Origin: a bacterium
Lineage (GTDB): Bacteria > Patescibacteriota > Minisyncoccia > Portnoybacterales > GWB1-42-6
DNA length: 64,000 nt
Direction: 5' to 3'
NCBI GenBank assembly: GCA_043800535.1
Contig: JAZDMV010000002.1
Location: 11,378 to 75,377 of the forward strand
Below are positions 2,033 to 63,250 of the stretch, in pieces (the first letter of the stretch is position 1; every line of letters begins with the position of its first letter). A program made the translations under genes and the position numbers. The notes below the pieces were generated by a model. It did not search any database. It saw nothing but the letters and a program-made list of their open reading frames with translations, and was not told the origin of the DNA.

Positions 2033-3286
2033 TTATTTCAACTCAATATATCCTTTCTCTAAATTTTCCACCACCATTTCCTCCAATTTTTCTTCTCCCA
2101 TATATTCAATAAAGATCTTATTCCAAAGAGCTTCCTGCTGATGATAAAGATATTTGCCGAGCCCCCCGCGAGTCAAAGAGATAACATTGTCCAAGAGGTC
2201 AAAGCTGACAATATCTTCACCTTTTTTCCCCGCAGGCAATATCGTCCCGACAAAATCATCGACCCCCCGCCAGAAATCCATTTTTGCCCGCGGATTTTTC
2301 TCGGCCATCGCATCCATCTCTTTTTCTGCTTTGAGCCAGTGGATGGTTTCAGGATTAACGTGCGGCTCAAACAGGCGCGGATCGTTTTCGTCAATCTTTG
2401 CCAGATACCGCACGACTATCCGCCACAAAATTTTTCCGTCCTCTTCGGGCATGGAATCAGTTATCGCGCCAGACAGAAGCTTTACGAGATTCTGCCCAAA
2501 ATTCGGCGCGGCCGAATATTTCTTAAAAAGCTTTGAATAAAAATCAATCTCATGAAGATAATGGAGCACCAAGCTGAATGTTTCCAGAGATTGGCCGGCA
2601 AACTGTTCTTTTTTCAAAGGCAGAATAAAAATAAAGCCAAGTTCCTTTAGGTGGCTGATATTGTGAAGTTTTTTGCCGACAAATTTTTCGCCGATTTGGG
2701 TCCATTTTGGCGAAAGCACAGCAATTCTCAATTCTCTTTCCTCGAAATTGTCACCGCGCAAATCGTTGTAGGGATGGAAAAAAACGTGATTGAGCCATTT
2801 TTCGTCTTCAACAAAACGCAAGGCGGCAAAAATCTCATAAAGGTCCTCTTTTTCCACCATCTCCTTTATGTTGTTATACCCCAGTGCCTTTAAAATATTC
2901 TTTGGCGGGTTCAAAAATAAAAAGTCCCGCAGCTTTTCTTTTTTGACAAAAAATCCCTTTGTGATATTGGCCGCATTCTTTAAAACATCGATCATCAGAT
3001 TGCAGCATTCTTGTTTGGCAAAATCCGGCCTGCCCAGAAATTCAAAAAAAGCCTCGTCCGCCTCTTTGGTTTTTTTCAAAAGCTCGCGCTCAACATATTG
3101 CGCGTCGGCTTTTTCTTCCGCAATGCCAAGTTCCGCGAGCTTACGTTTAATTACCGCCCGGTTCTCCTCAAAAATTTTATCCGCAACGCCTTTTTTGCCA
3201 GTCAATTTATCCATGCGGCTAAACAAATCGGCCAGAACATTTTCCGGCGTCCGTAAAAGTTTTGCGATATACTGAATTGAGTTCAT
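2033..3286 (-). CDS. hypothetical protein (417 aa, no family recognised)
   Basis: Long intact ORF in an operon-like context. No motif I can assign. Confidence 0.5.
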   Translation of the reverse strand: MNSIQYIAKLLRTPENVLADLFSRMDKLTGKKGVADKIFEENRAVIKRKLAELGIAEEKADAQYVERELLKKTKEADEAFFEFLGRPDFAKQECCNLMIDVLKNAANITKGFFVKKEKLRDFLFLNPPKNILKALGYNNIKEMVEKEDLYEIFAALRFVEDEKWLNHVFFHPYNDLRGDNFEERELRIAVLSPKWTQIGEKFVGKKLHNISHLKELGFIFILPLKKEQFAGQSLETFSLVLHYLHEIDFYSKLFKKYSAAPNFGQNLVKLLSGAITDSMPEEDGKILWRIVVRYLAKIDENDPRLFEPHVNPETIHWLKAEKEMDAMAEKNPRAKMDFWRGVDDFVGTILPAGKKGEDIVSFDLLDNVISLTRGGLGKYLYHQQEALWNKIFIEYMGEEKLEEMVVENLEKGYIELK

Positions 3287-7378: not shown

Positions 7379-7897
7379 TTACCAAGTGCTTCTGGCCGCT
7401 GCTGTTGAAACTTGCCAAGCCCCAGTTGGTCTAACGGGGTCATAAAAAGGATCTGTGGCTAAATACCCTGTCTCTGGCGTGCAATGAGCCAAAACTTTGT
7501 AGTCGACACCATTTGAATAATAAAGATAGCAGCAACCAGCGCCGTTGGCATTATGACCTTTTGGGTCAAGCGGCAGTTGCGCCATATACGCGGGCGCCAA
7601 ATTCGGAACATAGCCGTCGCTACCCGAAAGAGCGTGGCTTCCAAAACTATCGCATTCGCCCCACCACCCCGGCACAACCGGGTAGACGCCGCTAAAATCA
7701 TAATACATTTCCAAAGCCAGCTGAATTTGACTTAAATCCGTTTTACGCTTAGCGTCCCTCGCTTTTGCTCTGGCACTGCTAAGAGAAACCAACACAACGC
7801 CGGAAAGTAATCCTATAATCGCAATCACAACCAAAAGTTCCATCAAAGTGAACCCTTTTGTGCGGTTTTTAATTTTGATTCCAAGCCATCTTGACAT
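7379..7897 (-). CDS. type IV pilin-like protein
   Basis: [20 protein letters not shown] prepilin motif after a 15-aa leader. Confidence 0.75.
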   Translation of the reverse strand: MSRWLGIKIKNRTKGFTLMELLVVIAIIGLLSGVVLVSLSSARAKARDAKRKTDLSQIQLALEMYYDFSGVYPVVPGWWGECDSFGSHALSGSDGYVPNLAPAYMAQLPLDPKGHNANGAGCCYLYYSNGVDYKVLAHCTPETGYLATDPFYDPVRPTGAWQVSTAAARSTW

Positions 7898-44138: not shown

Positions 44139-44161
44139 AAATCCGCTTTCGCGGATTTTTT
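44139..44161. terminator. bidirectional terminator atccgctttcgcggat with A/T runs
   Basis: Lies between convergent genes. Confidence 0.6.
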
Positions 44162-44682
44162 TAAATCATTTCCAGTTCCTTCAACGCCGCTTCGTAGGCC
44201 CTAACCGCGCTTTCAACCTGATATTTAATCACAATCGCATTTGATTGGTGGACTATCAAATCCCGCAGGCGGTGCGCGTCCTGCACGTCATCAAGTGCGT
44301 GCAGCTGTTGGGTGGTTAGCTTTTCCAGACGCTCGCCCAAATCTCTACCCTCAATGCCCATTCTTTTTAAAACATCTTCCAGCAAATTATCCGCCTCAAT
44401 CACGGCCAGCTTTAAATTCGCCTCGTCTTCCTTTTCCATGCGGTCCTTTATCCTCTGCCAGTCATGTTCCATGCGCTGGGGCAAATTTGGCTTGCGAAAC
44501 GAGTCAATTCCTTCCGATAGCCACCAGGTCGCCCGCGAGCGGGAAAGCAAAACAACTATAGACACCAAAAGGACGGTGCAGACAATTGATGAAGCCACTT
44601 TTATCCAAAGAATCGTATTCGCAAATCCTGTGGACTGAAAATAAGAGACCAAATTGTCATAAATATCCAAAAGATAATTCAT
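44161..44682 (-). CDS. hypothetical membrane-anchored protein
   Basis: One TM helix, then a coiled-coil-like charged region. Confidence 0.45.
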   Translation of the reverse strand: MNYLLDIYDNLVSYFQSTGFANTILWIKVASSIVCTVLLVSIVVLLSRSRATWWLSEGIDSFRKPNLPQRMEHDWQRIKDRMEKEDEANLKLAVIEADNLLEDVLKRMGIEGRDLGERLEKLTTQQLHALDDVQDAHRLRDLIVHQSNAIVIKYQVESAVRAYEAALKELEMI

Positions 44683-48720: not shown

Positions 48721-48926
48721 TTAGAGGACGGAACCCCGCACCGAATGCTTTGCACGAACTTTTCATCAACGGCTCGTGCCAGCAAAATTCTGATGCCTGG
48801 GTTAAAATTTACTCCGGTTTTACGAATTTTAATCTCAAATTCAAAAAGGCAGTGTGCGGACAACTGCCTTCATTATATGAGGTTCTTTGCACAAAATCAA
48901 TTTCTCCTGATGATATCGCCCCTGTT

Positions 48927-50114
48927 CTAATAATTAATAATTATCTGGCCATTGCCGGTTTGATAGCCGGAAGTATAAGTCGGATTTGAGCCAGAAATAG
49001 CCCAGCCTGAACCGCCGCCTCCGCCTCCTCCTCCTCCGCGGCCGCCGCCGCCTCCTCCGCCATAGTAACCCGCGCCTCCTCCTCCGCCGCCGCTGACATT
49101 ACTGACTGATACCATGCCCGGTCCGCCTGTGCCAAGAGAACCACCCGGTGACATACACACACCATAGTAATAGTTGCATCCCCCGGCTCCGCCGCTTGAT
49201 GCTGTGCCAGAACCGCCACCTGTAGCCAGCCAAGAATATGTTGGGTAAGTATTGCCATATTGATCATAAGCGCCAGCTCCGACGGTTCCGGAAGTTCCGC
49301 CACCGGCTCCGCCGTTGCCGCCGTTGTAATAATATAACTCGCCGGGACTATAAAGGCTACCGCCGCCTCCTCCTCCGCCAGCCGCCACTGCTACCCGATT
49401 TGTCAGCGCCGTTCCTCCTCGTCTAATATCGCTTGCACCTCCGCCGCCGCCGCCATAGGCACCATAAACATCGTTGCCTCCGCTTCCTCCATTATTGTAA
49501 CCGCCTGTATATCCGCTAGCGACCCCGCCGACATAAATATACAGAGTTTCCCCTGGTGTCGTGGAAATTGTTGCTTGAGTACGGCCGCCTCTTGCGCCTG
49601 TGCCGGGGGTAGCGCCAGCATAAGGAGAGTTAGCGTCATGGCCATTTGCGCCCTGCGCGCCTTTTACATCAACTGTAATAGAATTGACGTCAGCCGGCAC
49701 GATCCAGGTCTGCTGGCTGCCATTATAGTTAAAAGTAACAGTGCCAGTAGGAGGTGGAGATGGAAAATTTACTTCTATTTTCCGCCTGCTATTGGAGTAT
49801 GCACCCAAAGAATTAATGAAATTGCTTCCCCAGCTCACCTGATAGCTCGCTTTACTGTATGGCAAAAAAAACGAACCGCTTCCGCTGATAACCCCAACTT
49901 TATATTTCTGATAAAGCGAGTATTCAGCGCCCGCGTCAGCCGCGTAAAAAGCCGGGCCTGACTGCCTGACCGAATCAGAAATTTTAAGCTCGTTAAAAAA
50001 CACGCCCGAAAGGCCGACACCGATCAAAAGCGTAATGCTTAAAATCAGGAGCGTCAGTAAAATAGCAACCGCACCTTTCTGTCTCCCTGACTTTTTAAAA
50101 TCAGAAATGTTCAT
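48927..50114 (-). CDS. Gly-rich membrane-anchored protein of the pilus locus
   Basis: Start placed at MNISDF..., then one TM. C-terminal half is runs of GGxGG, with GGGGGGRGGGGGGGGGSG. Stop/start juxtaposed with the upstream pilin gene. Confidence 0.6.
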   Translation of the reverse strand: MNISDFKKSGRQKGAVAILLTLLILSITLLIGVGLSGVFFNELKISDSVRQSGPAFYAADAGAEYSLYQKYKVGVISGSGSFFLPYSKASYQVSWGSNFINSLGAYSNSRRKIEVNFPSPPPTGTVTFNYNGSQQTWIVPADVNSITVDVKGAQGANGHDANSPYAGATPGTGARGGRTQATISTTPGETLYIYVGGVASGYTGGYNNGGSGGNDVYGAYGGGGGGASDIRRGGTALTNRVAVAAGGGGGGGSLYSPGELYYYNGGNGGAGGGTSGTVGAGAYDQYGNTYPTYSWLATGGGSGTASSGGAGGCNYYYGVCMSPGGSLGTGGPGMVSVSNVSGGGGGGAGYYGGGGGGGRGGGGGGGGGSGWAISGSNPTYTSGYQTGNGQIIINY

Positions 50115-50115
50115 A

Positions 50116-50637
50116 TTATTGGTATATCCGATTAGTAATCGTGTCTTCAATCCACATTTCCGGCTGGGCCGTTGTTGAGGGATAAATATGCAGAACAACA
50201 GTCACCCGCGGCTGCTCACCCGCGCTGTTTCGAACATAAAACCTGCCATCAACTCTTATCTGGCTTGAGTTCAGCCGCGCGCTTGCCTGAACACTGCAGC
50301 TTGTTCCGATCTGACGGGTAATGGCTAGCCGTCCGTCCACCGTTGTAAAACAATAAACCACATCAACGTTATTTTGATTTTTTATTGATAAAACCGAGCT
50401 ATTGGCGCTGGTCGCGGTATAAATCTTGCTCATTCTTACTTCTTTGGCAATAACCTCCATGATGTAACGGGCGTCGTCTTGGAGATTCTGCGATAAAAAT
50501 CCCTGCCTCTGGTTTTTAAGCGCGGTTAGAAAAATAGACACTGCCATGGTCATCACGGTCAAAAATATAGCCAGCGCCACCAGCAGCTCAAGGAGGGTAA
50601 ACCCCCACACCATTGACTTGTGCCCGTGTCTTTGCAT
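50116..50637 (-). CDS. minor pilin / pseudopilin (prepilin-type)
   Basis: MQRHGHKSMVWGFTLLELLVALAIF. The ORF-track N-terminal 80 aa is a read-through of intergenic repeats. Confidence 0.7.
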   Translation of the reverse strand: MQRHGHKSMVWGFTLLELLVALAIFLTVMTMAVSIFLTALKNQRQGFLSQNLQDDARYIMEVIAKEVRMSKIYTATSANSSVLSIKNQNNVDVVYCFTTVDGRLAITRQIGTSCSVQASARLNSSQIRVDGRFYVRNSAGEQPRVTVVLHIYPSTTAQPEMWIEDTITNRIYQ

Positions 50638-50861
50638 AATACCCTTTGGGTTCCTACACCATTCATTTATTCGCTGACGCCTGTATGATTCTGGTGTGGG
50701 GGTAAATCCTTTTTTGTTTATAAAACCCAGTTTCATTTTTGAATTTACCCCCACACTTATTCCAGTGATATAGCTTGATGTTCTATCAGAGGGCGGCCAA
50801 GCCCTCTTCGCTCTCCGACAATGAAATTTAGATTGTGTCTCGTCGGAATAAGTGTGGAGGT
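50638..50861. promoter_or_regulatory. structured intergenic region with inverted repeat ggtgtgggggtaaat...atttacccccacac and palindrome agagggcggccaagccctct
   Basis: 16-nt arms separated by about 35 nt, upstream of the pseudopilin gene. Shares cccccacac with the tkt palindrome. Confidence 0.4.
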
Positions 50862-51332
50862 TTACGGCATCCAATTGTATAAATTATCTTCAACCACCGC
50901 CGAAAACTGGCCCAAAGTATCGGTCCATTTTACCTCCGAAACGACATCTATGCTGTCGCTTCCCGCATAAATATAAATAGTCCGGTAAAATTTTGTATCC
51001 GTGCCGGTGTTGTAATTATAAAACCCGTTGCTGTCTATTTTAAGCGGCAGGTTTGCGTATGCAAAGAGTGATGCGCTGTTGTATTGCGTAAGGTAAGTCC
51101 CGCCGGCCAATCCATAGTTCCAGGTCCGGCCCGCAACCCAGTTTGAATCCCTCATGCCGCGCACCATCTCTATCCCTTCTTGAGCCAGATGATTGGCCAT
51201 AAATTTTTCGTTGCTTAAACGGCCGGCCACAACAACATAACGCAGCAGCGACAGCATCGCGACCAGACCAACCATCGTTATGCCCACGGCAAAAATAACA
51301 TCAAGCAAGCTGAAGCCGGTTTTTTTATTCAT
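50862..51332 (-). CDS. minor pilin-like protein (prepilin N-terminus KTGFSLLDVIFAVGI)
   Basis: Start at MNKKTGFSLL abuts the upstream gene stop. Confidence 0.65.
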   Translation of the reverse strand: MNKKTGFSLLDVIFAVGITMVGLVAMLSLLRYVVVAGRLSNEKFMANHLAQEGIEMVRGMRDSNWVAGRTWNYGLAGGTYLTQYNSASLFAYANLPLKIDSNGFYNYNTGTDTKFYRTIYIYAGSDSIDVVSEVKWTDTLGQFSAVVEDNLYNWMP

Positions 51333-51333
51333 T

Positions 51334-51834
51334 TTACTGAATTTCAATGCTGCCATTTTTTATTACTTTTACTGTTTTTGTATTGCCGCCCTGCGTCAGA
51401 GTAAAATAAATTTCCTGCAACGCGGACGTATTGTTAAAACACGAACGCGGCTCGGGCGGCGCGAAAAAAGCAGACGTGCCCGCTGTAGCCATTGTCACGC
51501 CGGCCGGCAGAGCGATTGTCTTTACTGACAAGCGTTCTGATGTCGCCGGGCAGCCATTAACATCAGCCGCAGTGGTATTTAAAAAAAGGAGATAATTCGC
51601 GCTGTCCTGGATATAGATGCCATAACCGCCCAATGGCTGGCCCGAAGTAGTGGTCCCGGTCACTGCCATGCCCTGCGCCTGGCGCAGATCAACGGCCAGC
51701 TTCTGCGCCGCCTGCAGCAGCGAATAATTTTTTTGTCCCTGCCGGTAATTAGCCAGCGCTAAAGAAGTGATGACTATTATTATTGCCAGCACCACCAGCA
51801 TTTCAAAAATTGTAAACCCTCTGTTTCTTTTCAT
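51334..51834 (-). CDS. minor pilin-like protein (GspH/FimT-like; RGFTIFEMLVVLAIIIVIT)
   Basis: Prepilin motif. Start placed at MKRNRGFTIFE. Confidence 0.7.
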   Translation of the reverse strand: MKRNRGFTIFEMLVVLAIIIVITSLALANYRQGQKNYSLLQAAQKLAVDLRQAQGMAVTGTTTSGQPLGGYGIYIQDSANYLLFLNTTAADVNGCPATSERLSVKTIALPAGVTMATAGTSAFFAPPEPRSCFNNTSALQEIYFTLTQGGNTKTVKVIKNGSIEIQ

Positions 51835-51870
51835 TTTATGACTGCTAATACCCAAATTATCGTTTTGCCT

Positions 51871-54800
51871 TTACGGCGCTACTTCCTTCCAATTAACGGG
51901 CGCGGTAAATCTGGCAGTGACGGTTTTGGACGCATCCATTGTTACGATGCAGGAACCTGTGCCCGAACAGCCAGCGCCAGACCAGCCGGCAAAGGTAGAA
52001 CCTGAAGCAGGCGCGGCATTTAAGGTTGTCGTATTGCCGAAATTATAAACCTCGCTGCAGTCGCCACCGCAGTTAATCTTTGTGTCGACGCTGGTCACTG
52101 TGCCTGTGCCGGTGCCGGTTTTTAAAACGGTTAGCGTGGAGGTAAGAGGATTAAAAACCGAGACCCATGCCATGGCCTGAACAGGAGAGGCGCTGCCTCG
52201 CTCAACCACTACTTTGGGAGTATAGCCACCGCCTGCCGCATAAGAAATGTTTGAGGAATATGAAGTTTCTGGCCGACCGTCATATTTTGCGTCGTAGCTT
52301 CCGCAGGCCGTGGTGCAGGATTGAACGGTACTGCACGCTGAACTGCAGTTCTTCCAGAATGTATAGTTAATAGTGCCAAAAGCCGTGCCTCCCACTGTTG
52401 CGGTTAAAGTGGAACTTAAAGGAGCAGTGCCAAAAGTAGGAATAGCTGTCAAAGAAACCGAGAGCGTGCAGGCCTGGGTGTTGCAGGCTTGCGAATAAAT
52501 GCTACAGTCAGCGGCCGTACAGCTTTGCGTCCCGCCGCCGCAGGCAACCGAGCAGCTGCCGCAACCAACAGTGCAAGCCACGCAATTTTGCAGCATGATA
52601 GGATTGGTTCCCGCCACTTTATAGGCCGTCCCGGAAACAGACACTGCCGAAGGGCCGGCCGAGCCAAAATTCGCGTTAGCAATCCCAGTGCCCTGCCAAC
52701 TAGACCAAGACCAAGGACTCTGGTAGGCGCTTTTATAGATATATCCGTCAAGCCCCTGAACGTAAGCCCAGACAACTCCTCCAATATTAACTAACTTGGG
52801 CCTGGCTCCTGTGTTGCCATTTATATAATACCATCCTGTCGGAGAACCCCCCTGCCATTCGTTTGCGTATATGGCATTAGCAGCGCCAGGAACCACCATA
52901 ATCAATCTGCCCGCGCTAGTCACTCCTATTACCGCCTCAAAAAGTCCGACTCCGCCGAGTGACTGATAATTTGTGAATACCTGGCCTACGGGGCAAGAAG
53001 CATCAGCCGGAGGAGCAGGAATGGCTCCCGCACTTACCGTGACCGGCGTTGTTGCTTCGCATGTGCTGTTTCCAGTGCAGTAAACACGCGGCTCATAATT
53101 TCCAGCGTTGGCGTAGGTTGAGTTACATACGCCGGCCGGCGGACTGAAATTAACACACGTGCCGTAACCAATAGGACAGGTTTTATAACTGGATGTATAA
53201 ACAATGTTGCTTAAATTTTTGTCGCAGTACAGATAGCATACCGGCAAACCCCCGGTTGAAGCAATATTCGTTACGCTAAAAGTTACGCCTGATAAAGGCG
53301 CTGTGCCGCTTGAGGGAGTAGCAGAAAAACCGACAATCGTGCAACTGGGCGTTACGCACGCTCCGCAATCGCCCGGACAGCTTGAGCAACTTTCAGTGCC
53401 GTTGCAAGTGCCATCGCCGCAGTAGGGAGAAGGGCCACCGCTAACACTAAACGAGCAAGTAGAACAATTATTGCTTTCATTTGATTCGTTTGTAACATGA
53501 TTCCAGGCGTCAGCGCAAACAGTGGCGGTGTGACTGCCAGTAATTGCAGTCCAGGAACCGGAAACACCCTCTGAAACACCAGGACCAATGGCATTAGTCC
53601 ATCCGTCACCAAGAGAGCCGCTCGTGCTGCCAGCCATGCAATTTGTATTATCTATGCAGATGCGAGGGTTGGAAGCAGAATTCGCCGCGGCGTTTCCGCT
53701 GTTTGTTATCGTTCCTGAAAAACCCACCGAACTGCCGGCTGCCGGATTGCTCGGACAGCTCATGCTGGCTGTCATATCGGATTTAGGAACCAAACACCCA
53801 GTGCCGCAAGCGTTAGTGGGAAATGAGCCAGAACCGTCTCCATTATCACTTATACAAGAAGTCCCGCTGCATTTATATTTAATAACTTTATTAAACGTCG
53901 CGGTCACGTTTACAGGAGTGACGTAGGTCAAAGCCAAATTACACACACCGGTGCCAGAACAGCCAGCGCCAGACCAGCCGGCAAACACGCAGCCGGCGCT
54001 TGGCGTCGCAGTCAATGTAACATTGATATCGGCTGTAAAATCCTCCTTGCAGTCACTGCCGCAACTGATGCCTGTGCCGCTTACTGTTCCTGTGCAGTTC
54101 CCTGCCTTTAAAACATTCAGGGTAGAACAATTAATATACACTAAATCGCCTCCCACGTGTTCATTCGTTGTTCCGTCACTAAATATTCTTTTGCCTGTTA
54201 TTTGAATACTGACTACATTCGTAGTCACCCCATAAGTGCAGAGAGGAGAACCGATTATACTCCCTGACCCCCCCACATGCGCGGTATCAGAACTGTACGC
54301 GGCGACACCGATTTCGTCCCAAAGCAGAATATGGCCCCCTCCTGCGCCTGAATTATGCTGGGCATTGATTCTAAGCCAAAGAGGGCCGCTCCAGGATGTG
54401 GAATTACTTGTATAAGAATCAGTGGTCCACATTATCATCTCGTTTAAATCAAAGGATGTTTTGGTAAGATTCGCCGTAAAATAAGTCATCATTGAACCTC
54501 CTACATAGCCGGTGTAGGCTTCTGCCGCTCCGGCAGAAAAGAAAAACATGCCGCCTGCCACAATTAAAAACAGAATTACTGGCGCCGCCGCATTAACCGA
54601 TTTTTTCCTGAAAAAGAAAAATGCGGCCAGGCCAAGAACGCACAATGCAACAAGAATTAAAACCGCTGACGAGGAATCCAATTTTAATGAACCCGGCTTT
54701 GCTTGCGGCGGGTTTTTGCTCGTTATCGCAAAATTCCACGCGTCCAGAATTTTGCCGCTGGCGTCTTTAAGCGAAACAGCTAATTGCGGATTTAAACATT

Positions 54801-55896
54801 CGCTGGTTATCGATAAATTAAATTTCGCGGAGGTCTTGTCTGTTTTGCTTTCGGCGCTTATCGGATCAACGCAATTTCTCCCATTTTCGTTTTTAATTGA
54901 TACGTCAAATAAAACATTTCCGGGGGGAGCAGCCCCGTTTTCTGCGTTTGAATTTACCTGTATTGAAAATGAATTCCAGAAAACAGATATTTCGGCATTC
55001 TCGCCTGGTGAATAGTAATCCTTATCCGCCAACACGTTCATAATAGTTCCCGCTGTTCCTTCCAGGCCGTGAAAAAAGGAAACCGCGTTGGAAATTTGCG
55101 TTTCGTTTTTAACCAGTGTAATTTTTGACTGATAAATTTGAGAAGCGTTGCCCTGCGGTACATAAAAACTGATAATTTTCTGTTCCTGCGGCTTTATGGA
55201 AATTCCGCTGCCTGAGGTTTTTCCGTTCTCAATCAGTTCTTTTGAATTTCCGGCGTAAGTTTCAACCTGCGGCACAAAATTTATTTCTTCTTTAAAATAA
55301 CTGACCGCTTTGCAGTTGCCGATAATCTTCTGCCCGTTCTGGACAATCAAGCCGCCTTCGCTAAATAAGTGATGCTCTGCTTCCTGGCCTTCAATTGCCA
55401 GATAGCAGGAATCAGCTAGAATTTCAACAAACTGGCTGTCTCCTGACAAAGAAACACTGCCTGCCGTGTTTATACCCAGAGGCAGGCCGCGCGAGTTTGC
55501 TGAAACAACCCATATTTCAAAACTTCCCTTAAGATAAGCCGGCGCGCTGTATTCCACTTCTTTTTTGACAAGCTCCTCTTTTCCCAGGGTCAAGGCTTCG
55601 GCATAATTTTTTTCATCAATTATCTTATTATCTTTCGTCAGACGAATGCCATATCTTATATCCGGCTGGATTTTTTCGCGGTTATATATTTCAAATCCGA
55701 TTCTAAAATTATTTCCCGTTTGACTAATAATCCTTGCGTTATATATGTTGACCGTGGCGATAAGCGTGATTTGGCCACCGCTGGTATCCTGCACAGATAA
55801 TGCGTCATTTTGGGCGAAAACCGTTTTAGTGCAAAAAAAAGCCGCCGCAAAGGCCGCAAACATAAAAAGCACCAAAAATATCGTTCTATTTTTCAT
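51871..55896 (-). CDS. giant secreted surface protein (1341 aa): signal peptide, N-domain, internal TM hairpin, Cys-rich region with TSP1-like repeat, C-terminal beta-sandwich module
   Basis: N-terminal signal MKNRTIFLVLFMFAAFAAAFFCTKTVFAQ. Internal LILVALCVLGLAAFFFFRKKSVNAAAPVILFLIVAGGMFFFSAGAAEA. CSVACGGGTQSCTAADCS..CNTQAC. C-terminal FAGWSGAGCSGTGSCIVTMDASKTVTARF. Confidence 0.8.
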   Translation of the reverse strand: MKNRTIFLVLFMFAAFAAAFFCTKTVFAQNDALSVQDTSGGQITLIATVNIYNARIISQTGNNFRIGFEIYNREKIQPDIRYGIRLTKDNKIIDEKNYAEALTLGKEELVKKEVEYSAPAYLKGSFEIWVVSANSRGLPLGINTAGSVSLSGDSQFVEILADSCYLAIEGQEAEHHLFSEGGLIVQNGQKIIGNCKAVSYFKEEINFVPQVETYAGNSKELIENGKTSGSGISIKPQEQKIISFYVPQGNASQIYQSKITLVKNETQISNAVSFFHGLEGTAGTIMNVLADKDYYSPGENAEISVFWNSFSIQVNSNAENGAAPPGNVLFDVSIKNENGRNCVDPISAESKTDKTSAKFNLSITSECLNPQLAVSLKDASGKILDAWNFAITSKNPPQAKPGSLKLDSSSAVLILVALCVLGLAAFFFFRKKSVNAAAPVILFLIVAGGMFFFSAGAAEAYTGYVGGSMMTYFTANLTKTSFDLNEMIMWTTDSYTSNSTSWSGPLWLRINAQHNSGAGGGHILLWDEIGVAAYSSDTAHVGGSGSIIGSPLCTYGVTTNVVSIQITGKRIFSDGTTNEHVGGDLVYINCSTLNVLKAGNCTGTVSGTGISCGSDCKEDFTADINVTLTATPSAGCVFAGWSGAGCSGTGVCNLALTYVTPVNVTATFNKVIKYKCSGTSCISDNGDGSGSFPTNACGTGCLVPKSDMTASMSCPSNPAAGSSVGFSGTITNSGNAAANSASNPRICIDNTNCMAGSTSGSLGDGWTNAIGPGVSEGVSGSWTAITGSHTATVCADAWNHVTNESNESNNCSTCSFSVSGGPSPYCGDGTCNGTESCSSCPGDCGACVTPSCTIVGFSATPSSGTAPLSGVTFSVTNIASTGGLPVCYLYCDKNLSNIVYTSSYKTCPIGYGTCVNFSPPAGVCNSTYANAGNYEPRVYCTGNSTCEATTPVTVSAGAIPAPPADASCPVGQVFTNYQSLGGVGLFEAVIGVTSAGRLIMVVPGAANAIYANEWQGGSPTGWYYINGNTGARPKLVNIGGVVWAYVQGLDGYIYKSAYQSPWSWSSWQGTGIANANFGSAGPSAVSVSGTAYKVAGTNPIMLQNCVACTVGCGSCSVACGGGTQSCTAADCSIYSQACNTQACTLSVSLTAIPTFGTAPLSSTLTATVGGTAFGTINYTFWKNCSSACSTVQSCTTACGSYDAKYDGRPETSYSSNISYAAGGGYTPKVVVERGSASPVQAMAWVSVFNPLTSTLTVLKTGTGTGTVTSVDTKINCGGDCSEVYNFGNTTTLNAAPASGSTFAGWSGAGCSGTGSCIVTMDASKTVTARFTAPVNWKEVAP

Positions 55897-56029
55897 AGAA
55901 TTTAGACAGATTTAAAAATATCCTCCACTTAAATTATACCTTATTAGCGCCACAAACCTAAAAAAGTTTTCCACAGCCGGCAGCGGATAATTTTTTATAC
56001 TGCTACCCGCATATTATTATTTTCCCTAT

Positions 56030-59000
56030 TTATGGCGTGATCTCCTTCCAATCAACAGGCGCGCTAAATCTGGCAGTGACGGTTTTGGATGAGTCCGTTG
56101 TCACGATGCAAGAACCTGTGCCAGAGCAGCCAGCGCCAGACCAGCCGACAAAGGTGGAGCCCAAAGCGGCAGCTGCATTTAAGGTCGTCGTGTTGCCGGA
56201 ATTGTAAACTTCGCTGCAGTCCCCACCACAGTTGATCTTTGTGTCAAGGCTAGTCACTGTGCCTGTGCCTGTGCCTGTTTTTAAGACGGTTAAGGTGTAT
56301 GTAACTGGGTTGGTGACCGTGACGGCTGTCCGTGCCTGGGCAGGCGCGGCGCTGCCTCGCTCAACCACCACTTTTGGAGTATAGCTGCCGCCTGAAGCAT
56401 AAGAAACGGTTGAGGAATATGAAGTTTCCGGCCGGCCGTCATATTTTGCGTCGTAGTTTCCGCAGGCAGTGGTGCAGGATTGCACGGTACTACACGTTGA
56501 ATTGCAGTTCTTCCAGAACGTATAGTTAGTCGTGCCAAAAGCTGTGCCAGAGACCGTCGCAGTTAAGTTAGAGCTTAAAGGAGCAAGGCCAGAAGCCGGA
56601 TTGGCTGTTAAAGAAGCCGAGAGGGTGCAGGCCTGGGTGTTGCAGACTTGCGTCTCCGGATAGGTTGAGCAATCAGTGCGCGTGCAGGTTCTTGATTGCG
56701 TTCCGCCGCCGCAGGCCGCGGAACAAGAACCCCAGCTGCCGCAACTGGCGGTGCAGCCGACTGGGGTGACGACCACCGGGAAATTGGCCACGCCTTCTGC
56801 ATAGCCGCCCCAATAGCCCGCAGTGACCAAACGAACCTGGGCCAGATAATTGCCAGGAACGCTGTATTTGGCATCGCAAACGCCAATAGGCAAGGCAACC
56901 GCCCTTCTGACAAACGACGTCTCATAGTCATACGCATATGAAGCGCTCCAGTCCGACGGCTGATACGGATTGCTTATATTGCGATTGCACCAGAAATAGT
57001 AAGTCCAGCCAGAGCCCCAGTCCAAATTGGATACGCCCAAGGCCATAAAATCAATCTGCAAAGGAACGGTGCCGGAGTTAATGTCCTGCCAGCCGCCCCA
57101 GTAGCAACCATAATAATTACAGGGCCAGGACTGATTTCTTGTTTTTGTTCTAAGATATGCCTGGGCAAAATATTCCGGAGGAGGCGGAGGAGCATTGCAG
57201 GCGGCCTGACATTCGACTAAAGTTTTTTTGTAGCCAAGAAAGGAGCAGGCGACGTCACCGCCTGTACAATTGACCGCCTCGCACGTATAAGAACTGTTAC
57301 AGCGATACCAGCTGCTTACCAAAGGAACACAGGTATTGTTGCAGTTGGAGTCGGTGAAGGTGCCGTTGACATCATCCCTGGCGCAGGAAGAACCGCTACA
57401 TTTGTATTTGGGAACAACAACGCAAGCGTTGGCACAGGTGGGATCGTCTGTATAATATGTCGCTCCGCCAACGCTTTTTGCGTCATCCTGCACGCAAGTA
57501 GCGTTGCTGCATCTATAATAGCTATGAATTGGACTTTCAACATAGATATTTATGTTGGCTGAAGCTGGCCCGCAACGGCTATTGCAGGTGACTGTATAAG
57601 TATAAGTGCCGCTGCTTAAAGCACCTGTTGACTGGCTGCCTGAAGTGCCGGTCCAGCCGGCCGGCGCGACAGAACAACTTGTCGCGCCTGTTGAATTCCA
57701 GGCGATAGTCGCCGCAGTGCCGGCTGCAACTAAAATTGAACCTGCCTGGCCATTGGCAGTGATGGATGCTGTAGGCGGAGACAAAACTGTATAGCGCAAA
57801 TATTGACTGCCAAGCAAGCTCCACGTCTTATTATTTAAAGAAACCTGGCCCTTAAAATCAGCGTTGTATGTCCCGGGCGTTGATTCGGCAGTGAAAGAGG
57901 TATTTCCGTAAGCACATTTGTCTAACGACACATCCTGCCCGTTTAAAATTTCCTGATATTGAGTGGCTGTCCCGGCTCTTACCTGCAAATACGCATTGGC
58001 AACCGTATTCTCGCACGCATAATTTCCGCAAGCCGAAGCAGTCATATTGATTGCCTCGCTCGGACAATAAGACAAGTTGTCCAGGCCTATAGTAAAAGTC
58101 GCCTCTTCTATCTCAAAAGCGGCAGATTGCGAAAAGGCCTGGGCAGTTTTAACAGAAGCCAAAAAAACAACGCCGGATATCAGTAAAAATAATAAAATTA
58201 TCGCTGCCGGCGCGCTGGCTGCCTTGCCTTTTTTTCTCAAAATCATAAGCGCTATAAAACCGATTAAAACAGCCAGCCCAGGAATTATATATTTATATAT
58301 CTCCTTCAAAAAAAATTTTGTTTTTTCCGGCCCGGGAACGTTCTGGCTTTTGGCCGTGAAAGTTTTTTTGTCAAGCACGTTGCCGCTGGTCGCCTGCTTA
58401 AGCGTTACGGTCACTGCCGGGTCTTTGCAGTTTTGAATAACCGGCATAGTAAATGTCAAAGAGTCCTGGCCGGTCATTTGTCTTTCTGCCGCCTCAACGC
58501 AGGGCTCTCCAGAACTGTTCTGAATTGATATATCCAGAATAACCGGCCCGATATCGCTGCCTTCTCCTGCCCGGGAGCCAAAAAACGAATCAGCCGAAGG
58601 AGTCCAGAAAAAAGATATCTGGGCATTCTGGCCTTTTAAATAATAATCTTTATCAAGATGCAAATTCTGGATAGTGGCGCTGGCGCCTCTTAGAACATAA
58701 TGAAAAGCAATAGAATTGGAAACCGGCCTGTTTTGAAAAACAAAGCTCAATCTTGCGTCATAGGCCTGGGGCGCCAAGGCTTTTGGCAAAATTAAACTGA
58801 TTGTTTTTGTTTCCCCTTTTTTAATAGATACCTCTTGCTGGAGTTCTTTGTTATCCTCAACCGCATTGCCAAACGAAGTCCTATAATACGTCTTAAACTC
58901 GGGCGTCACGACAATATCCTTGTCAAAATGATTAATAATTTCGCAGGTGCCGATCAGCTTTTCTTCATTTGATATATCAACGCCCTGGAAGCGAGTGTAT

Positions 59001-59530
59001 TTTTTCTGCGGAGTTTCATTTTGAACGGTTAAATAGCAGGAACGATTATCTATTTCAACATATTGGCCCGTGCCCTCAAGCCCCACATCTGACAACTTTG
59101 CCACTGACAGCGTCAGGCCAGCGGAATTTCGCGCCAGAAGCCAAAGCTGATATACTCCCTTTAAAAATGGCGGCGGCGTGTATTCGATCTGCTTGGTCAC
59201 GGTCTCGTTTTCGTTCAGGTCAACTGATCCGTCATAAACCTGCTCGTCGATCAGAATGCGGGTCGTTGAGCTGACGCGGGAAAATAGCTGAACCGCATAT
59301 TTAATTCCTGACTGCGTTCCCTGGCCGTTCCCCAGCACAAACGAGATCTTAAAAGCAGGCGCGCCCGGATTTGAAATGATCTTGGCCTGATAAATGCCGA
59401 CCGTGGCCAGAAGAGTGGCGCTGCTGGTGGCGTTGGGCGGTTCCTGGGCAGAAACCGGCTTCAGGAAAATGGCAAATATCAGAAAAAACGATAAGCAAGC
59501 CAAGGAAGATAATACTGTTCTGTTTTTCAT
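56030..59530 (-). CDS. giant secreted surface protein paralog (1166 aa) with the same architecture
   Basis: N-domain about 35% identical to the 51871 gene. SWGSCSAACGGGTQSRTCTRTDC TSP1-like. C-terminal about 250 aa nearly identical to its neighbour, and the DNA is also near-identical. Confidence 0.8.
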   Translation of the reverse strand: MKNRTVLSSLACLSFFLIFAIFLKPVSAQEPPNATSSATLLATVGIYQAKIISNPGAPAFKISFVLGNGQGTQSGIKYAVQLFSRVSSTTRILIDEQVYDGSVDLNENETVTKQIEYTPPPFLKGVYQLWLLARNSAGLTLSVAKLSDVGLEGTGQYVEIDNRSCYLTVQNETPQKKYTRFQGVDISNEEKLIGTCEIINHFDKDIVVTPEFKTYYRTSFGNAVEDNKELQQEVSIKKGETKTISLILPKALAPQAYDARLSFVFQNRPVSNSIAFHYVLRGASATIQNLHLDKDYYLKGQNAQISFFWTPSADSFFGSRAGEGSDIGPVILDISIQNSSGEPCVEAAERQMTGQDSLTFTMPVIQNCKDPAVTVTLKQATSGNVLDKKTFTAKSQNVPGPEKTKFFLKEIYKYIIPGLAVLIGFIALMILRKKGKAASAPAAIILLFLLISGVVFLASVKTAQAFSQSAAFEIEEATFTIGLDNLSYCPSEAINMTASACGNYACENTVANAYLQVRAGTATQYQEILNGQDVSLDKCAYGNTSFTAESTPGTYNADFKGQVSLNNKTWSLLGSQYLRYTVLSPPTASITANGQAGSILVAAGTAATIAWNSTGATSCSVAPAGWTGTSGSQSTGALSSGTYTYTVTCNSRCGPASANINIYVESPIHSYYRCSNATCVQDDAKSVGGATYYTDDPTCANACVVVPKYKCSGSSCARDDVNGTFTDSNCNNTCVPLVSSWYRCNSSYTCEAVNCTGGDVACSFLGYKKTLVECQAACNAPPPPPEYFAQAYLRTKTRNQSWPCNYYGCYWGGWQDINSGTVPLQIDFMALGVSNLDWGSGWTYYFWCNRNISNPYQPSDWSASYAYDYETSFVRRAVALPIGVCDAKYSVPGNYLAQVRLVTAGYWGGYAEGVANFPVVVTPVGCTASCGSWGSCSAACGGGTQSRTCTRTDCSTYPETQVCNTQACTLSASLTANPASGLAPLSSNLTATVSGTAFGTTNYTFWKNCNSTCSTVQSCTTACGNYDAKYDGRPETSYSSTVSYASGGSYTPKVVVERGSAAPAQARTAVTVTNPVTYTLTVLKTGTGTGTVTSLDTKINCGGDCSEVYNSGNTTTLNAAAALGSTFVGWSGAGCSGTGSCIVTTDSSKTVTARFSAPVDWKEITP

Positions 59531-59747
59531 AAATTTAGGAATTTAAAACAGCTAAAAGAACTTTTTTTATCAAGAAAGTTCTCCCGCTTATTTTGTCATT
59601 ATCCATTGCCTTAATTATACCAGGAGACGCCACTTAAAAGAATGGACTTATCCACAAGAAAGAAGCCACCCCCAGCTGACGGAGCGGGGCGGTTTATCAG
59701 GTAAGAAAAAACGGCAGATGAATTTTCATCTGCCGCCACAAAGCAAA

Positions 59748-62024
59748 TCATTCCTTCGGTTTGCCTGTTATTTCGAACACCTGCTGCCAAGTTAAATAAG
59801 TTTCTTTGGCCACTGTCACAATTAATTTGCCCGTGCCGCCAAATGGCTTAAAATTGGCCGATCCTTTTTTGTTAGTGCCCAGCTTCTGGTTTGTTATTCC
59901 GCTTAACGCCACCTGCGCTCCTGGCAGAAATCCGCTGGTTTCAGCGTCCCTGACAACAACTTTAACGGTTTTTTTCTGTTTTCCAGTAATTGAAACCGTT
60001 ACGTCAAGCCTGTACGCTTCGATCGCTACCGCCAAAACAGCTGACCAATCAGACATAACTTGGTTATGAACAAAGCACCGCGCCCGGACTTTAATATCAT
60101 AGATACTCTCCATGCTCCATTTTTTTGAAGCCTTCAGTGCGCCAGCCGGCAGCCAACCCGAATCTGTACCGTCACCCCAATCAAAAAGATACTGCACGCC
60201 ATGGCCTAATGAACAGATGGAACCGGGGCTGTTGACAGAAAAAACATAATTCTTTCCGACATAACCGCTGGCCGGGCCAGCAATTGAAGCCGGAGAAGAA
60301 ACCGACTCGTTCCAGATATGCCAAACACGGCTTCTTGTCAGATGGCCGCCTTCCATTGAAGGATGGACGAACGGCGTTCTGTCTTTAACCTGCAATTCAA
60401 CTTTTCTGTCTGTGCCGCTGGCCACCGTAACAAAAAAAGAATCAGAGCTGACACCCGCTATTGGCACGCCGTCCACAATCCAGACAATTTCAAGCGGCAG
60501 ATTGCTGATCGGTTCCAATAAATGAACTTTAAAATCTATTGTCTGCGTTTGCGTTCCGGGAATAAAAATGTCTCCTGGCAACGGCTCTTCGCTTCCCGGT
60601 TCTATCAAGTCAATCCCGTTTTCCGGAATGCCGCCCCAGCCAGAAAAAAGCGTCAAAATAAGTTCCTGCCGGCATACGGGACAAAATCCTTGACCATCCC
60701 GCATCATGCAGTGGTTGTACGGCCTGAACATCTTTTCCTTAACATGCCCTGCCCCCTCAAATAGCCCGACTTTGTCATTAAACTTTTCTTCGGGCGGAGT
60801 CGGAATTGGCGTATCGGGCAAGATCCAATAATTCCATTTTATTTTTGCCCTATCTGTTTCTGACGTAATATTTGGCCCGCAATTTCCCAGCTCTTCGCTG
60901 CACATAAAGCAGTTTTCAGTACAGTCATAGTCATATTCGTCCCGTAGCGCGGACTCCCCGGGCCTGGAAAATGAATGACCAAACACATGGGTAGTATTGG
61001 TAATCATTGGTGGAGCAGTTGACGTAACAACCATCATGCCGCCACTAACGCCAATAATGTCGTCGTTAACAATAACGACAATGGCGTCCCAGTCGGGCAC
61101 AGCCGCAGCCGCCGCGAAAACCTTATCAAAGTCAACCACTAATTCGCGGTGTGCACTGCCGCCACTGCAATAACGTGCGTTAAAAGCGGTGTCAACAAAT
61201 GTCCCGGCTTTTTTGTCATATTGAGCCTGGGGGTCGCTACAACAGAAAAGATCATCCGCCTGACAGTCAGGCCGAAAAACTGGATGATCCGCTCCTGACT
61301 GGTTTGACGGGATAAAGAGGCCGCCTGCGTTCATTGCCTGCTTATATTCTTTAAACGGACTTATGGCCAAAAAGCCATAGATGAGCTTTCCGGCATCGGC
61401 AAAAAATTTATCTTTTTCGGTCGCCTGATAGCCTTCCGAAATTACCAAAAGATCAAGTCTGTTGTTAGGATTGCCGTTTGCCAGAATCGGCCTGACAGCT
61501 GTTTCCTGGGATTCAGCCAAAATCAGCTGATTTTGCGCCAATTCCTGCAGATCAAAAACATATTCCCGGCTGCTCTCTGCATTTTCTCCGCCTGCCACAA
61601 GACACAGCTTTGTTCCTTCTATCACCGGCAATCGCACTACAAAATGAATCAGCTCCTGTTCAGCCAGGTACCCAGCGATCCCGCCATTTGCCGCCTGGGA
61701 TTCTGCGTGCAGCACTTTGGGAATCTCAACTATTTTACTGTGAACGATCTGGCCTCCTGCGTCCTTAAGCTGCGCAAAAAATTGCTGTCTAAAACCGTCT
61801 GATGGTTTTAATTCGTTCTTTTCCGGAGATCTGATTCCGGCGCCCGGTGGCACCGCCATTTGCACAAAATAATGCTTGAGCGGCCTGATTGTTCCGTCAG
61901 CCATCTCAAAAACGATATAATGACTCAATTGCTTTTCGGCCTCTTTGCCGAAACTCTGAACATTTAAACCGAGAATCGCCAATAAAACAATACCCGCCAA
62001 AATCATCAATTTTGCCGTTTTCAT
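59748..62024 (-). CDS. secreted M64 (IgA-peptidase)-like protein with variant active site plus PKD domain
   Basis: Signal peptide. THVFGHSFSRPGESALRDEYDYD resembles M64 HEFGH...DEY but with E->V. C-terminal YLFDWGDGTDSGW PKD-type motif. Confidence 0.55.
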   Translation of the reverse strand: MKTAKLMILAGIVLLAILGLNVQSFGKEAEKQLSHYIVFEMADGTIRPLKHYFVQMAVPPGAGIRSPEKNELKPSDGFRQQFFAQLKDAGGQIVHSKIVEIPKVLHAESQAANGGIAGYLAEQELIHFVVRLPVIEGTKLCLVAGGENAESSREYVFDLQELAQNQLILAESQETAVRPILANGNPNNRLDLLVISEGYQATEKDKFFADAGKLIYGFLAISPFKEYKQAMNAGGLFIPSNQSGADHPVFRPDCQADDLFCCSDPQAQYDKKAGTFVDTAFNARYCSGGSAHRELVVDFDKVFAAAAAVPDWDAIVVIVNDDIIGVSGGMMVVTSTAPPMITNTTHVFGHSFSRPGESALRDEYDYDCTENCFMCSEELGNCGPNITSETDRAKIKWNYWILPDTPIPTPPEEKFNDKVGLFEGAGHVKEKMFRPYNHCMMRDGQGFCPVCRQELILTLFSGWGGIPENGIDLIEPGSEEPLPGDIFIPGTQTQTIDFKVHLLEPISNLPLEIVWIVDGVPIAGVSSDSFFVTVASGTDRKVELQVKDRTPFVHPSMEGGHLTRSRVWHIWNESVSSPASIAGPASGYVGKNYVFSVNSPGSICSLGHGVQYLFDWGDGTDSGWLPAGALKASKKWSMESIYDIKVRARCFVHNQVMSDWSAVLAVAIEAYRLDVTVSITGKQKKTVKVVVRDAETSGFLPGAQVALSGITNQKLGTNKKGSANFKPFGGTGKLIVTVAKETYLTWQQVFEITGKPKE

Positions 62025-62384: not shown

Positions 62385-63250
62385 GGCATTCTTAACAAGT
62401 TGGAACAAGATACAGTGAATTCTTCAAGTATTCATGCGGATTTTCAAAGATTTCAGGGTGGTTAAAATATGCCTCAAATTCTGCCACCACATTTTCCAAC
62501 TTGGAACAGGTAACGTGATGGTATTTTCTTCTGATGAAGGTTCAAAGATTTCCGAAGATACCTTCTATCTCGGAAGTCAGCCCGAACTGCCACTTGGAAT
62601 GAATGTCTCTTTGGTGAGTGACCGGCCATGCGTTTTGGATGCCTGGGTAATAGCCGGCGCCGTCCGTGAACAGCCTTGAACCCGGCTCAACGTGCCTGAC
62701 GATGAACTGCGATACATTCTGTTTTTCAATATACTTTTTATGAACCACCCGCAGAGTTATTTTCTTAGTGATTGTGTCTTTGGCCGCGATGACTGCCTTG
62801 CTTCTAAAAAAGCCTCATCCATCTGAATTGTGTCCCTTAGCGGAGAAAGCCAGTCTGGATCAGGGATATTTAGCCTAAAATCTTCAAACCATTTTCTGAT
62901 TGTGACTTCGCTTAATTCTGTAATTTTAATTGATTGGGTAATCGGCAAGTGATTTAACCAACACCACAAAAGCGTGTAGAATTGCTGCCAGGGCAGCTTC
63001 ATGTTGGTCAGCCAGGTGTTGCTGGTTAAGGAAAAGGGCCGGCGGCAATTTTTACACAGGTACCGATTCTCTGATTTGTAGACTGCCCTTGATTTGCACC
63101 GCGGACAGTGCAGGTGAGTGCCGAATAATATCTTTCTGACTAGCTTTTTAATTTTTGCTTCTGATGAAATATCTTTTAATTTATACATAGGAACAGATTT
63201 TTTAAAGATTTTCATCTTTATTGTATCATTGAATCTGTTCCAACTTATTT
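62385..63250 (-). mobile_element. degraded IS1595-family insertion sequence
   Basis: Imperfect terminal inverted repeats aagttggaacaagatacagtgaat (62389-) and attgaatctgttccaactt (-63246). Internal frameshifted transposase. Confidence 0.5.
62542..63215 (-). pseudogene. IS1595/ISXO2-like transposase, frameshifted/truncated (two ORFs 62757-63215 and 62542-62748)
   Basis: N-terminal zinc ribbon CPRCKS..CKNCRRPF. C-terminal LFTDGAGYY ... TSEIEGIFGNL (DDE D2 and E motifs). The middle section is missing. Confidence 0.6.

Follow-up and report, generated by a model that had tools for sequence, protein, structure and literature searches.

A large part of bacterial diversity belongs to the Patescibacteria, most of which apparently live attached to other microbes. 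The attachment molecules that are known in this group are few and come from oral Saccharibacteria only. In Saccharibacteria, pili and several adhesins have been reported to be essential to epibiotic growth (PMC10633639), and attachment has been proposed to proceed in two steps, by a pilus and then by a surface adhesin (PMC11623550). In TM7x (Nanosynbacter lyticus), the pilins PilX1 and PilX2 have no PilD site and carry accessory C-terminal domains, and PilX2, which is required for host binding, has been proposed to be the tip adhesin (PMC11623550). Here, a locus of minor pilin genes and large surface protein genes was analyzed in a 64,000-nucleotide (nt) stretch of DNA (contig JAZDMV010000002.1, referred to as the window) from a patescibacterium of the Portnoybacterales lineage. 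The seven open reading frames (ORFs) of the locus are all on the minus strand, between positions 48927 and 62024 of the window, and were labeled A to G (Table 1). Their coordinates and lengths match those of an original prediction made from the sequence alone, in which E and F were called giant 1 and giant 2. At 1166-1341 amino acids (aa) these proteins are large rather than giant, and the name is kept here only as a label.

Our analysis favors, with slightly better than even confidence, the interpretation that the locus combines a type IV pilus priming or tip operon with tandem bipartite surface proteins that work alongside the pilus. The minor pilin operon itself appears to be of a known type, and its new parts would be two concrete candidates: a tip-class pilin with a glycine-rich domain, and a very large unannotated protein family with a two-part topology and a conserved tail, which is placed repeatedly at the head of pilus operons. 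In the literature searched, no description was found of a glycine-rich domain of the ALK/LTK type on a PilX-class pilin, or of a bipartite family with an internal signal peptide and a conserved tail; neither has a Pfam or NCBIfam family model.

Minor pilins and the glycine-rich subunit

The original prediction placed three minor pilins and a separate glycine-rich anchored protein in the locus. The minor pilin locus was borne out, but its composition was revised to four minor pilins, since the product of gene A, too, appears to be pilin-like, of the PilX_N type, with the glycine-rich domain PF12810 fused to it. The order of the genes D-C-B-A is read as the canonical GspH-GspI-GspJ-GspK or FimU-PilV-PilW-PilX order, because the class III signals and the matches to GspH, PilV/GspI, ComGF/GspJ and PilX_N run in that order along the operon. 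In the descriptions that follow, a slash marks the processing position of the class III signals.

The D protein has a fully canonical class III signal, MKRNRG/FTIFEML. Its Pfam matches to N_methyl (26.7 bits) and GspH (22.7 bits, with a cut-off of 21) are each above the cut-off, and its best NCBIfam match is TIGR01708 (gspH) with an E-value of 1.4e-11 and 44.7 bits, under the cut-off of 80. The true start of D is probably the ATG at 51834, which is downstream of the start of the ORF and 36 nt past the stop codon of E. The signal of the C protein, KKTG/FSLLDVIF, has Asp and not Glu at position +5. Weak NCBIfam matches of C to PilV (E=1.7e-4) and GspI (E=5.4e-3) do not reach the cut-offs, and C matches the C-like gene of a related locus, L018, at 6.4e-6. 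For B, the leader MQRHGHKSMVWG/FTLLE is read from an ATG at 50637, downstream of the start of the ORF, which is probably the start codon; the signal VWG/FTLLELL, found by a regular-expression search for the class III motif, is fully canonical. B matches Pfam N_methyl (E=2.8e-4), NCBIfam ComGF (1.5e-6) and GspJ-type models, with all of the latter under the equivalog cut-offs, and weakly matches the B-like pilin of L018. The ORF of B reaches approximately 80-90 codons upstream of the class III signal (50637-50874) and overlaps the end of C. If B starts at the ATG at 50637, a spacer of about 224 nt would be left untranslated in an otherwise tightly packed operon.

Gene A begins with KG/AVAILLTLLILSITLL...AFYAADAGAEY. 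Its QKG/AVAILL site has no acidic residue at +5, as in GspK and PilX. Residues 1 to about 120 are pilin-like, apparently of the PilX/GspK class, and residues from about 125 to 395 form a complete glycine-rich domain of the ALK/LTK type. Pfam PF12810 (ALK_LTK_GRD) matches residues 148-388 with 25.7 bits, above the cut-off of 24.5. When A was combined with 15 bacterial homologs into a profile, this matched solved ALK/LTK glycine-rich domains over the whole domain (E=7.6e-10). A search of the PDB with the A sequence alone returned low-complexity noise and nothing else. The bacterial glycine-rich domain is widespread, and its usual fusion partners are type IX secretion system (T9SS), PKD or FN3 modules; PilX_N is not annotated in any of the 120 best homologs of A. 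At the fourth operon position, the protein in the related loci L018 (599 aa), L002 (482 aa), L014 (465 aa) and L020 (466 aa) has the N-terminal signature of A, and in all four its C-terminal module is large and different from that of A. The glycine-rich domain of A is the most likely tip-exposed binding module, with its placement at the tip presumed from known tip complexes. Since the operon already contains a PilX-class pilin that carries a glycine-rich domain, A is a better candidate for the tip adhesin than the giants.

The bipartite envelope proteins and their family

The E and F proteins share one plan, which consists of a signal peptide, approximately 350 conserved residues, two hydrophobic segments that flank a basic loop, a variable Cys-rich part (50 Cys residues in E and 41 in F), and a tail at the extreme C-terminus (NWKEVAP in E, DWKEITP in F) with no hydrophobic segment beyond it. 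In E, three immunoglobulin (Ig)-like sandwiches at about residues 49-390 are followed by the first transmembrane segment (TM1, 402-432), the basic loop, and a second transmembrane segment (TM2, 432-460) that ends in AEA/Y. The variable module of E contains a CARDB domain and two InlB B-repeats (Flg_new_2), which are also its Pfam matches, and a degenerate TSP1-like motif at about residues 1106-1140; F has one B-repeat match in Pfam. The conserved N-domain was modeled, as the original prediction had suggested, and AlphaFold2 with 58 sequences returned three beta-sandwiches and then a helical hairpin with a predicted local distance difference test (pLDDT) score of about 95.

Most of the labels of the original prediction are backed by Pfam or NCBIfam. 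The TSP1-like label of the giants goes back to one Cys motif in each protein. The motif of F (about residues 920-965) matches TSP1_CCN over its full length with 23.1 bits (E=9e-5), under the cut-off of 27, and TSP1_ADAMTS with 16.2 bits, under the cut-off of 23.8, and the motif of E has no Pfam TSP1 match. True TSP_1 repeats are found in relatives such as P0002, and in 2 of 58 family members. No match of E or F to the PilY1/Neisseria_PilC propeller or to vWA was obtained with Pfam and NCBIfam at E<=0.1, and scans of single segments with Pfam, including a Trp-rich region of E at about residues 955-1100, gave no family even at E<=10. This region (52800-53030) has a repeated Trp/Gly-rich pattern, …GWYYINGN…VWAYVQGLDGYIY…WSWSSWQG…, which resembles a small propeller or lectin module. 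Neither protein matched any NCBIfam CTERM model for the known C-terminal sorting signals (LPXTG, PEP-CTERM, PGF-CTERM and others). The E-box of Gram-positive pilins was considered as an explanation of the tail and was rejected because its spacing differs.

The N-modules of E and F are 32% identical, and their C-terminal 243 aa are 79% identical. At the DNA level, the 3' ends of the two genes are 82% identical over at least 300 nt (51870-52169 and 56029-56328). Because the ends are far more alike than the N-modules, the data suggest that these old paralogs recently underwent gene conversion or swapped modules at their 3' ends. A 48-nt stretch that encodes the GWSGAGCSGTG core of the InlB B-repeats occurs three times (51955-52002, 53947-53994 and 56114-56161) with 83-85% identity.

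The family to which E and F belong is very large and extends across the Patescibacteria. A word-index search with giant 1 returned six relatives and led to the view that the family is rare, which was overturned by an exhaustive profile search with the N-module that returned 2142 cluster representatives, of which 1076 have E<=1e-30. Genome records in which relatives occur carry the labels Parcubacteria, Paceibacterota, Moraniibacteriota, Nomurabacteria, Saccharibacteria or Patescibacteria. The conserved module is N-terminal in every representative and is followed by 200-1400 variable residues. The family plan consists of a signal peptide, three Ig-like sandwiches, TM1, a basic loop, TM2 with an (A/V)-x-A site, a variable module, and a tail of the [WFY]xE[VI]xP type, and every one of these defining elements is present in both E and F. 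No Pfam model covers the N-module in any of 58 members, and the C-modules of these members contain Flg_new_2, TSP_1, PKD or LCCL now and then. Among 141 full-length representatives, the residue at -3 after TM2 is A, V or S in 119 and the residue at -1 is A in 108, usually with D-T-F next, and the interhelix loop has a mean net charge of +3.8 and a charge of at least +2 in 99%. From this signature, TM2 is probably a signal peptide inside the protein that has a site for signal peptidase I, at which cleavage would presumably occur after AxA.

The two halves of the proteins are separable, because N-only forms, a split gene and free-standing tailed modules are all found. Seven representatives, together with the genes of L019 and L033, stop just past TM1. 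In L026 (9962-12671), the gene is split in the cytoplasmic loop, so that a 446-aa N-module ORF stops after TM1 and a second, overlapping ORF (463 aa) begins with an ordinary signal peptide (...REVKA/DTYTG) and ends in an FTEP tail (...SPIFTEP). Free-standing proteins with a signal peptide, a variable region and a tail adjoin family genes in L015 (3523-4674), L017 (12-2072), L020 (7123-9852) and L028 (12261-13295). Tandem pairs of family genes, as with E and F, also occur in L015 and L016. The strict form of the tail, [WFY]xE[VI]xP, is present in 66 of the 141 members and a loose form in 94 of 141, compared to 0.5% of internal sequence windows. Among 700 ORFs of all fetched loci, the strict tail was found in family members and in adjacent free modules only. 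A clade of family genes adjacent to pilB has another tail (...STSSEI/F) in fused and free modules alike, and the free module of L020 ends in ...STSSEI, the same clade-specific tail as in the neighboring fused proteins. The tail thus tracks the local system, as this clade has its own tail that is common to fused proteins and free modules.

Pilus linkage, transcription and competing explanations

Linkage of the family to pilus genes was assessed in 20 related loci with sufficient flanking DNA. In 7 of the 20, pilB or pilC lies within 10 kb of the family gene. The family gene is followed directly by pilB-pilC and pilins in four of them (L014, L016, L018 and L020). In L002, a complete cluster of pilB, pilC, pilins, PilX_N and pilM lies 3 kb downstream; in L028, a PilB-like gene lies 2 kb upstream; and in L011, pilC lies 6 kb downstream. 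The L018 locus is collinear with the present one, in the order family gene, pilB, (nuclease), pilC, D-like, C-like, B-like and PilX-like, and corresponds to the present locus with pilB and pilC inserted. The pilus-linked genes fall into at least two separate clusters of the family. Since 7 of the 20 loci are linked to pilB or pilC and L018 is collinear, the linkage between giant genes and pilin genes on which the original prediction depended is conserved in relatives, although only in part. In the window, E adjoins the first pilin gene, and the scan found no terminator-like hairpin in the 36-nt gap between the stop codon of E and the likely ATG of D.

The transcription units were assigned from consensus matches and are likely to be G alone, F, and E-D-C-B-A, with read-through from F into E possible. 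E and the pilin genes probably share one transcript, which would start from a promoter ahead of E, and the hairpin after A is the probable end of the operon. This hairpin is not in the terminator scan, as its 9-nt loop is over the limit of the scan, and the extended -10-like box upstream of F is absent from the promoter-scan list because it has no -35 match. The tight junctions of the original prediction at 50114/50116 and 51332/51334 were confirmed.

In the favored interpretation, transcription would start at the promoter upstream of giant 1 and end at the hairpin past A. The four minor pilins would form a tip complex, with the PilX/GspK-class A farthest out on the filament, as in tip complexes that are already known. 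The three Ig-like sandwiches of the N-module would be exported and held in the membrane by TM1, and the positively charged loop would remain cytoplasmic. TM2, acting as an internal signal peptide with the conserved (A/V)-x-A site, would then export the variable Cys-rich C-module with its WKEVAP-type tail. We infer that the C-module has an adhesive role and is retained at the surface, so that it would be a variable adhesin displayed on the cell and not on the pilus tip. Attachment could then take two steps, in which the pilus first touches the host and is retracted, and the adhesin on the cell surface then locks on.

Several observations weigh against this interpretation. The class assignments of all four pilins are under the NCBIfam equivalog cut-offs, and the PilX_N match of A (16.7 bits) is below the Pfam cut-off of 25.5. 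The 64-kb window contains no pilB, pilC or pilM, and the cognate pilus machine was not located there. About two thirds of the related loci (13 of 20) are not near pilus genes and have mostly housekeeping neighbors, and non-pilus neighbors of family genes are found in L007 (8700-11750), L008 (1690-4212) and L006 (13112-14149). A Foldseek search with the N-module returned generic FN3, Ig and macroglobulin-like arrays and nothing more specific. In the AlphaFold2 model of full-length P0004, the tail and the Cys-rich region have pLDDT scores of <50, and the tail has no confident placement.

Alternative explanations differ mainly in the role that they give to the giants. The original prediction proposed that the giant Cys-rich proteins may take the role of PilY1/PilC; in such a model they would dock on the minor pilins after export and ride the pilus tip. 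The adjacency of E to the pilins with no terminator between them holds up, the family is linked repeatedly to type IV pilus operons, and, like PilY1, the giants combine a conserved part with a variable one. Cleavage by signal peptidase at AxA, if it takes place, would free the C-module from the membrane and make it available for pickup, and the conserved tail could serve as a docking strand. However, the giants have no match to the PilY1 propeller or vWA, their conserved part is the N-module anchored by the membrane hairpin and not the part that would be released, most family members are unlinked to pilus genes, and a modular PilX-type pilin is already in the operon, so the tip-adhesin role of the giants is decidedly improbable in our judgment. 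Tandem paralogs and free-standing modules are a better fit to a display system. The giants could form a new kind of self-contained surface display system, widespread in Patescibacteria and coupled to the pilus, in which a single gene gives rise to two polypeptides by way of the internal signal peptide and the Ig stalk captures the variable adhesin module through its clade-matched tail; we regard this as a tentative and rather unlikely possibility. The accompanying proposal, that the tail is a new sorting or retention signal and the free-standing tailed modules are interchangeable cargo of the same dock, is held with similarly low confidence. It is unlikely that the giants are instead scaffold proteins of the envelope in general or of an S-layer type, in which an anchored stalk holds an outer module non-covalently, and that the proximity to pilus genes is meaningless. 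The membrane-anchored Ig stalk, the occurrence of tandem paralogs, and the size and variability of a family that is found mostly amid housekeeping genes are consistent with such a scaffold, but family genes directly next to pilB, as in 4 of the 20 loci and in at least two family clusters, are far more frequent than a chance expectation of about 0.5% per locus (our own rough estimate, from 1-2 pilB copies per genome of about 1000 genes), and the C-modules contain adhesin-type domains (TSP1, PKD, LCCL, InlB B-repeat and CARDB) and not lattice-forming ones. The description of the locus as a candidate host-attachment system stands in that the giants are good candidates with a recurrent pilus linkage, and it is qualified in that their adhesive role is presumed and the linkage is partial.

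The remaining alternatives concern the pilins and gene G. Quite unlikely, in our assessment, is a short pseudopilus of the Com or type II secretion system (T2SS) type in place of an adhesive pilus, used for DNA uptake or for protein export through the wall, with the tailed C-modules as possible cargo. CPR (candidate phyla radiation) bacteria depend on DNA and nucleotide uptake, and the best NCBIfam matches of the pilins include GspH, GspI, GspJ and ComGD/GE/GF. In L007, the family gene is followed downstream by a VirD4/TraG-like ATPase and then a ComEA-like protein (HHH_3, PKD), and L006 has a weak type IV secretion system (T4SS) pilin-like protein; genes for DNA transfer or uptake may thus be a second group with which the family is associated. 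The pseudopilus matches are all far under the equivalog cut-offs, however, and they do not discriminate, since the minor pilins of type IVa pili (T4aP), T2SS and Com systems are homologous. Relatives tie the family to clusters of the pilB-pilC-pilM type, and a role in binding a ligand is suggested by the glycine-rich module that the PilX-class subunit carries.

The presence of an M64-like gene in the locus was confirmed, as G matches Pfam Peptidase_M64 with E=1.4e-30 and 106.9 bits, but its membership of an attachment system was not supported. G could be thought to process adhesins or host surface proteins, as it is on the same strand directly upstream and encodes a protein with a signal peptide and C-terminal PKD-like and CarboxypepD_reg-like parts. 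In an alignment with the Bacteroides structures 3p1v and 4df9, G has HVFGH in place of HEFGH, so that the catalytic Glu is replaced by Val and G may be a pseudo-peptidase. The His residues that bind zinc are retained, as is the downstream DEY. A functional part for G in attachment is very improbable, and it was set aside as probably a neighbor because it has its own strong terminator-like hairpin, lacks the Glu of the HExxH motif, and has no homolog in any related locus examined.

Table 1. Genes A-G and putative transcription signals of the locus, with positions in the window
Feature	Position	Strand	Size	Description
Gene A	48927-50114	-	395 aa counted from internal ATG	PilX/GspK-class pilin-like protein with glycine-rich domain; last gene of the operon
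Gene B	likely 50116-50637 (ORF to 50874)	-		PilW/GspJ/ComGF-class minor prepilin
Gene C	50862-51332	-		PilV/GspI-class minor prepilin
Gene D	likely 51334-51834 (ORF to 51855)	-		GspH/FimU-class minor prepilin
Gene E (giant 1)	51871-55896	-	1341 aa	Bipartite envelope protein
Gene F (giant 2)	56030-59530	-	1166 aa	Paralog of E with the same architecture
Gene G	59748-62024	-	758 aa	Secreted M64-like protein
Terminator-like hairpin	59710-59737	-	12-bp stem	Stem and T-run, from 11 nt past the stop codon of G
Extended -10-like box TGgTATAAT	59614-59622	-		Upstream of F; read by eye, without -35 match
Weak terminator-like hairpin	55987-55970	-		Between F and E, ahead of the TATAAT box
-10-like box TATAAT	55933-55938	-		37 nt upstream of the ATG of E; read from sequence
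Terminator-like hairpin	48842-48868	-	9-nt loop	GGCAGT-(9 nt)-ACTGCC and TTTTTGA, downstream of A; read from sequence

The genes that flank the locus are housekeeping genes (ligA, gatC, gatA, clpB-like, gyrB, pheST and dnaE). Two further pilin-like genes outside the locus, at 447-935 and 7379-7897, were confirmed as originally predicted. A 152-aa ORF upstream of G (62757-63215) has the zinc-ribbon domain alone of an IS1595-type transposase and is probably an insertion-sequence remnant just upstream of the locus. Two ORFs amid the housekeeping genes, at 2033-3286 (417 aa) and 44161-44682 (173 aa), are without a Pfam match.

Comparison with known systems

If adhesin display coupled to a pilus is the correct interpretation of the family, it would open a general way into host recognition throughout the radiation and would add a new bacterial sorting signal. 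The closest counterparts of the pilin genes are the FimU-PilV-PilW-PilX genes of P. aeruginosa and the GspH-I-J-K genes of the T2SS. As in these systems, four small genes follow one another, and their classes come in the same order. Class III signals are present in three, and the fourth is without Glu5 and has an N-terminus that weakly resembles PilX_N. The locus differs in that the matches are under the equivalog level, neither pilY1 nor pilE follows, the PilX-class subunit is enlarged by a 270-aa glycine-rich domain, and the gene for a large envelope protein heads the operon.

The giants are similar to PilY1/PilC in that the gene adjoins minor pilin genes and encodes a large secreted protein with one conserved and one variable part. 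In contrast to PilY1/PilC, the giant gene is upstream and not downstream of pilX, the protein has a transmembrane hairpin anchor and no propeller or vWA, and the conserved part is N-terminal and membrane-bound. The two-component surface layer SlaB/SlaA of the Sulfolobales, which consists of an anchored stalk and an outer module, is similar in having a membrane-anchored beta-sandwich stalk that is encoded together with a separate, variable outer polypeptide. In the bipartite family, the two halves are usually fused through the transmembrane hairpin with its internal signal peptide, and the outer part has adhesin-type domains and a short conserved tail. No homology to SlaB/SlaA was detected. Gene G shares the M64 domain, the zinc-binding His residues and the DEY motif with the M64 metallopeptidases (IgA peptidase family; 3p1v and 4df9), but has HVFGH, in which the catalytic base is gone, and has added PKD-like and CarboxypepD_reg-like domains.

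The C-terminal part of A is homologous over the whole domain to the ALK/LTK glycine-rich domain (PF12810; PDB 7lrz and 7nx0), which is the ligand-binding module of the ALK/LTK receptors; in A the context is bacterial and the domain is fused to a pilin-like N-terminus. The TM7x pilins PilX1 and PilX2 are comparable to A in that they also belong to Patescibacteria, are the largest pilins of their loci, have no PilD site of the canonical kind and bear an accessory domain at the C-terminus (PMC11623550). No sequence similarity between them and A was detected. The accessory domain is a jelly roll or a seven-bladed propeller in the TM7x pilins (PMC11623550), and in A it is a glycine-rich domain of the ALK/LTK type.

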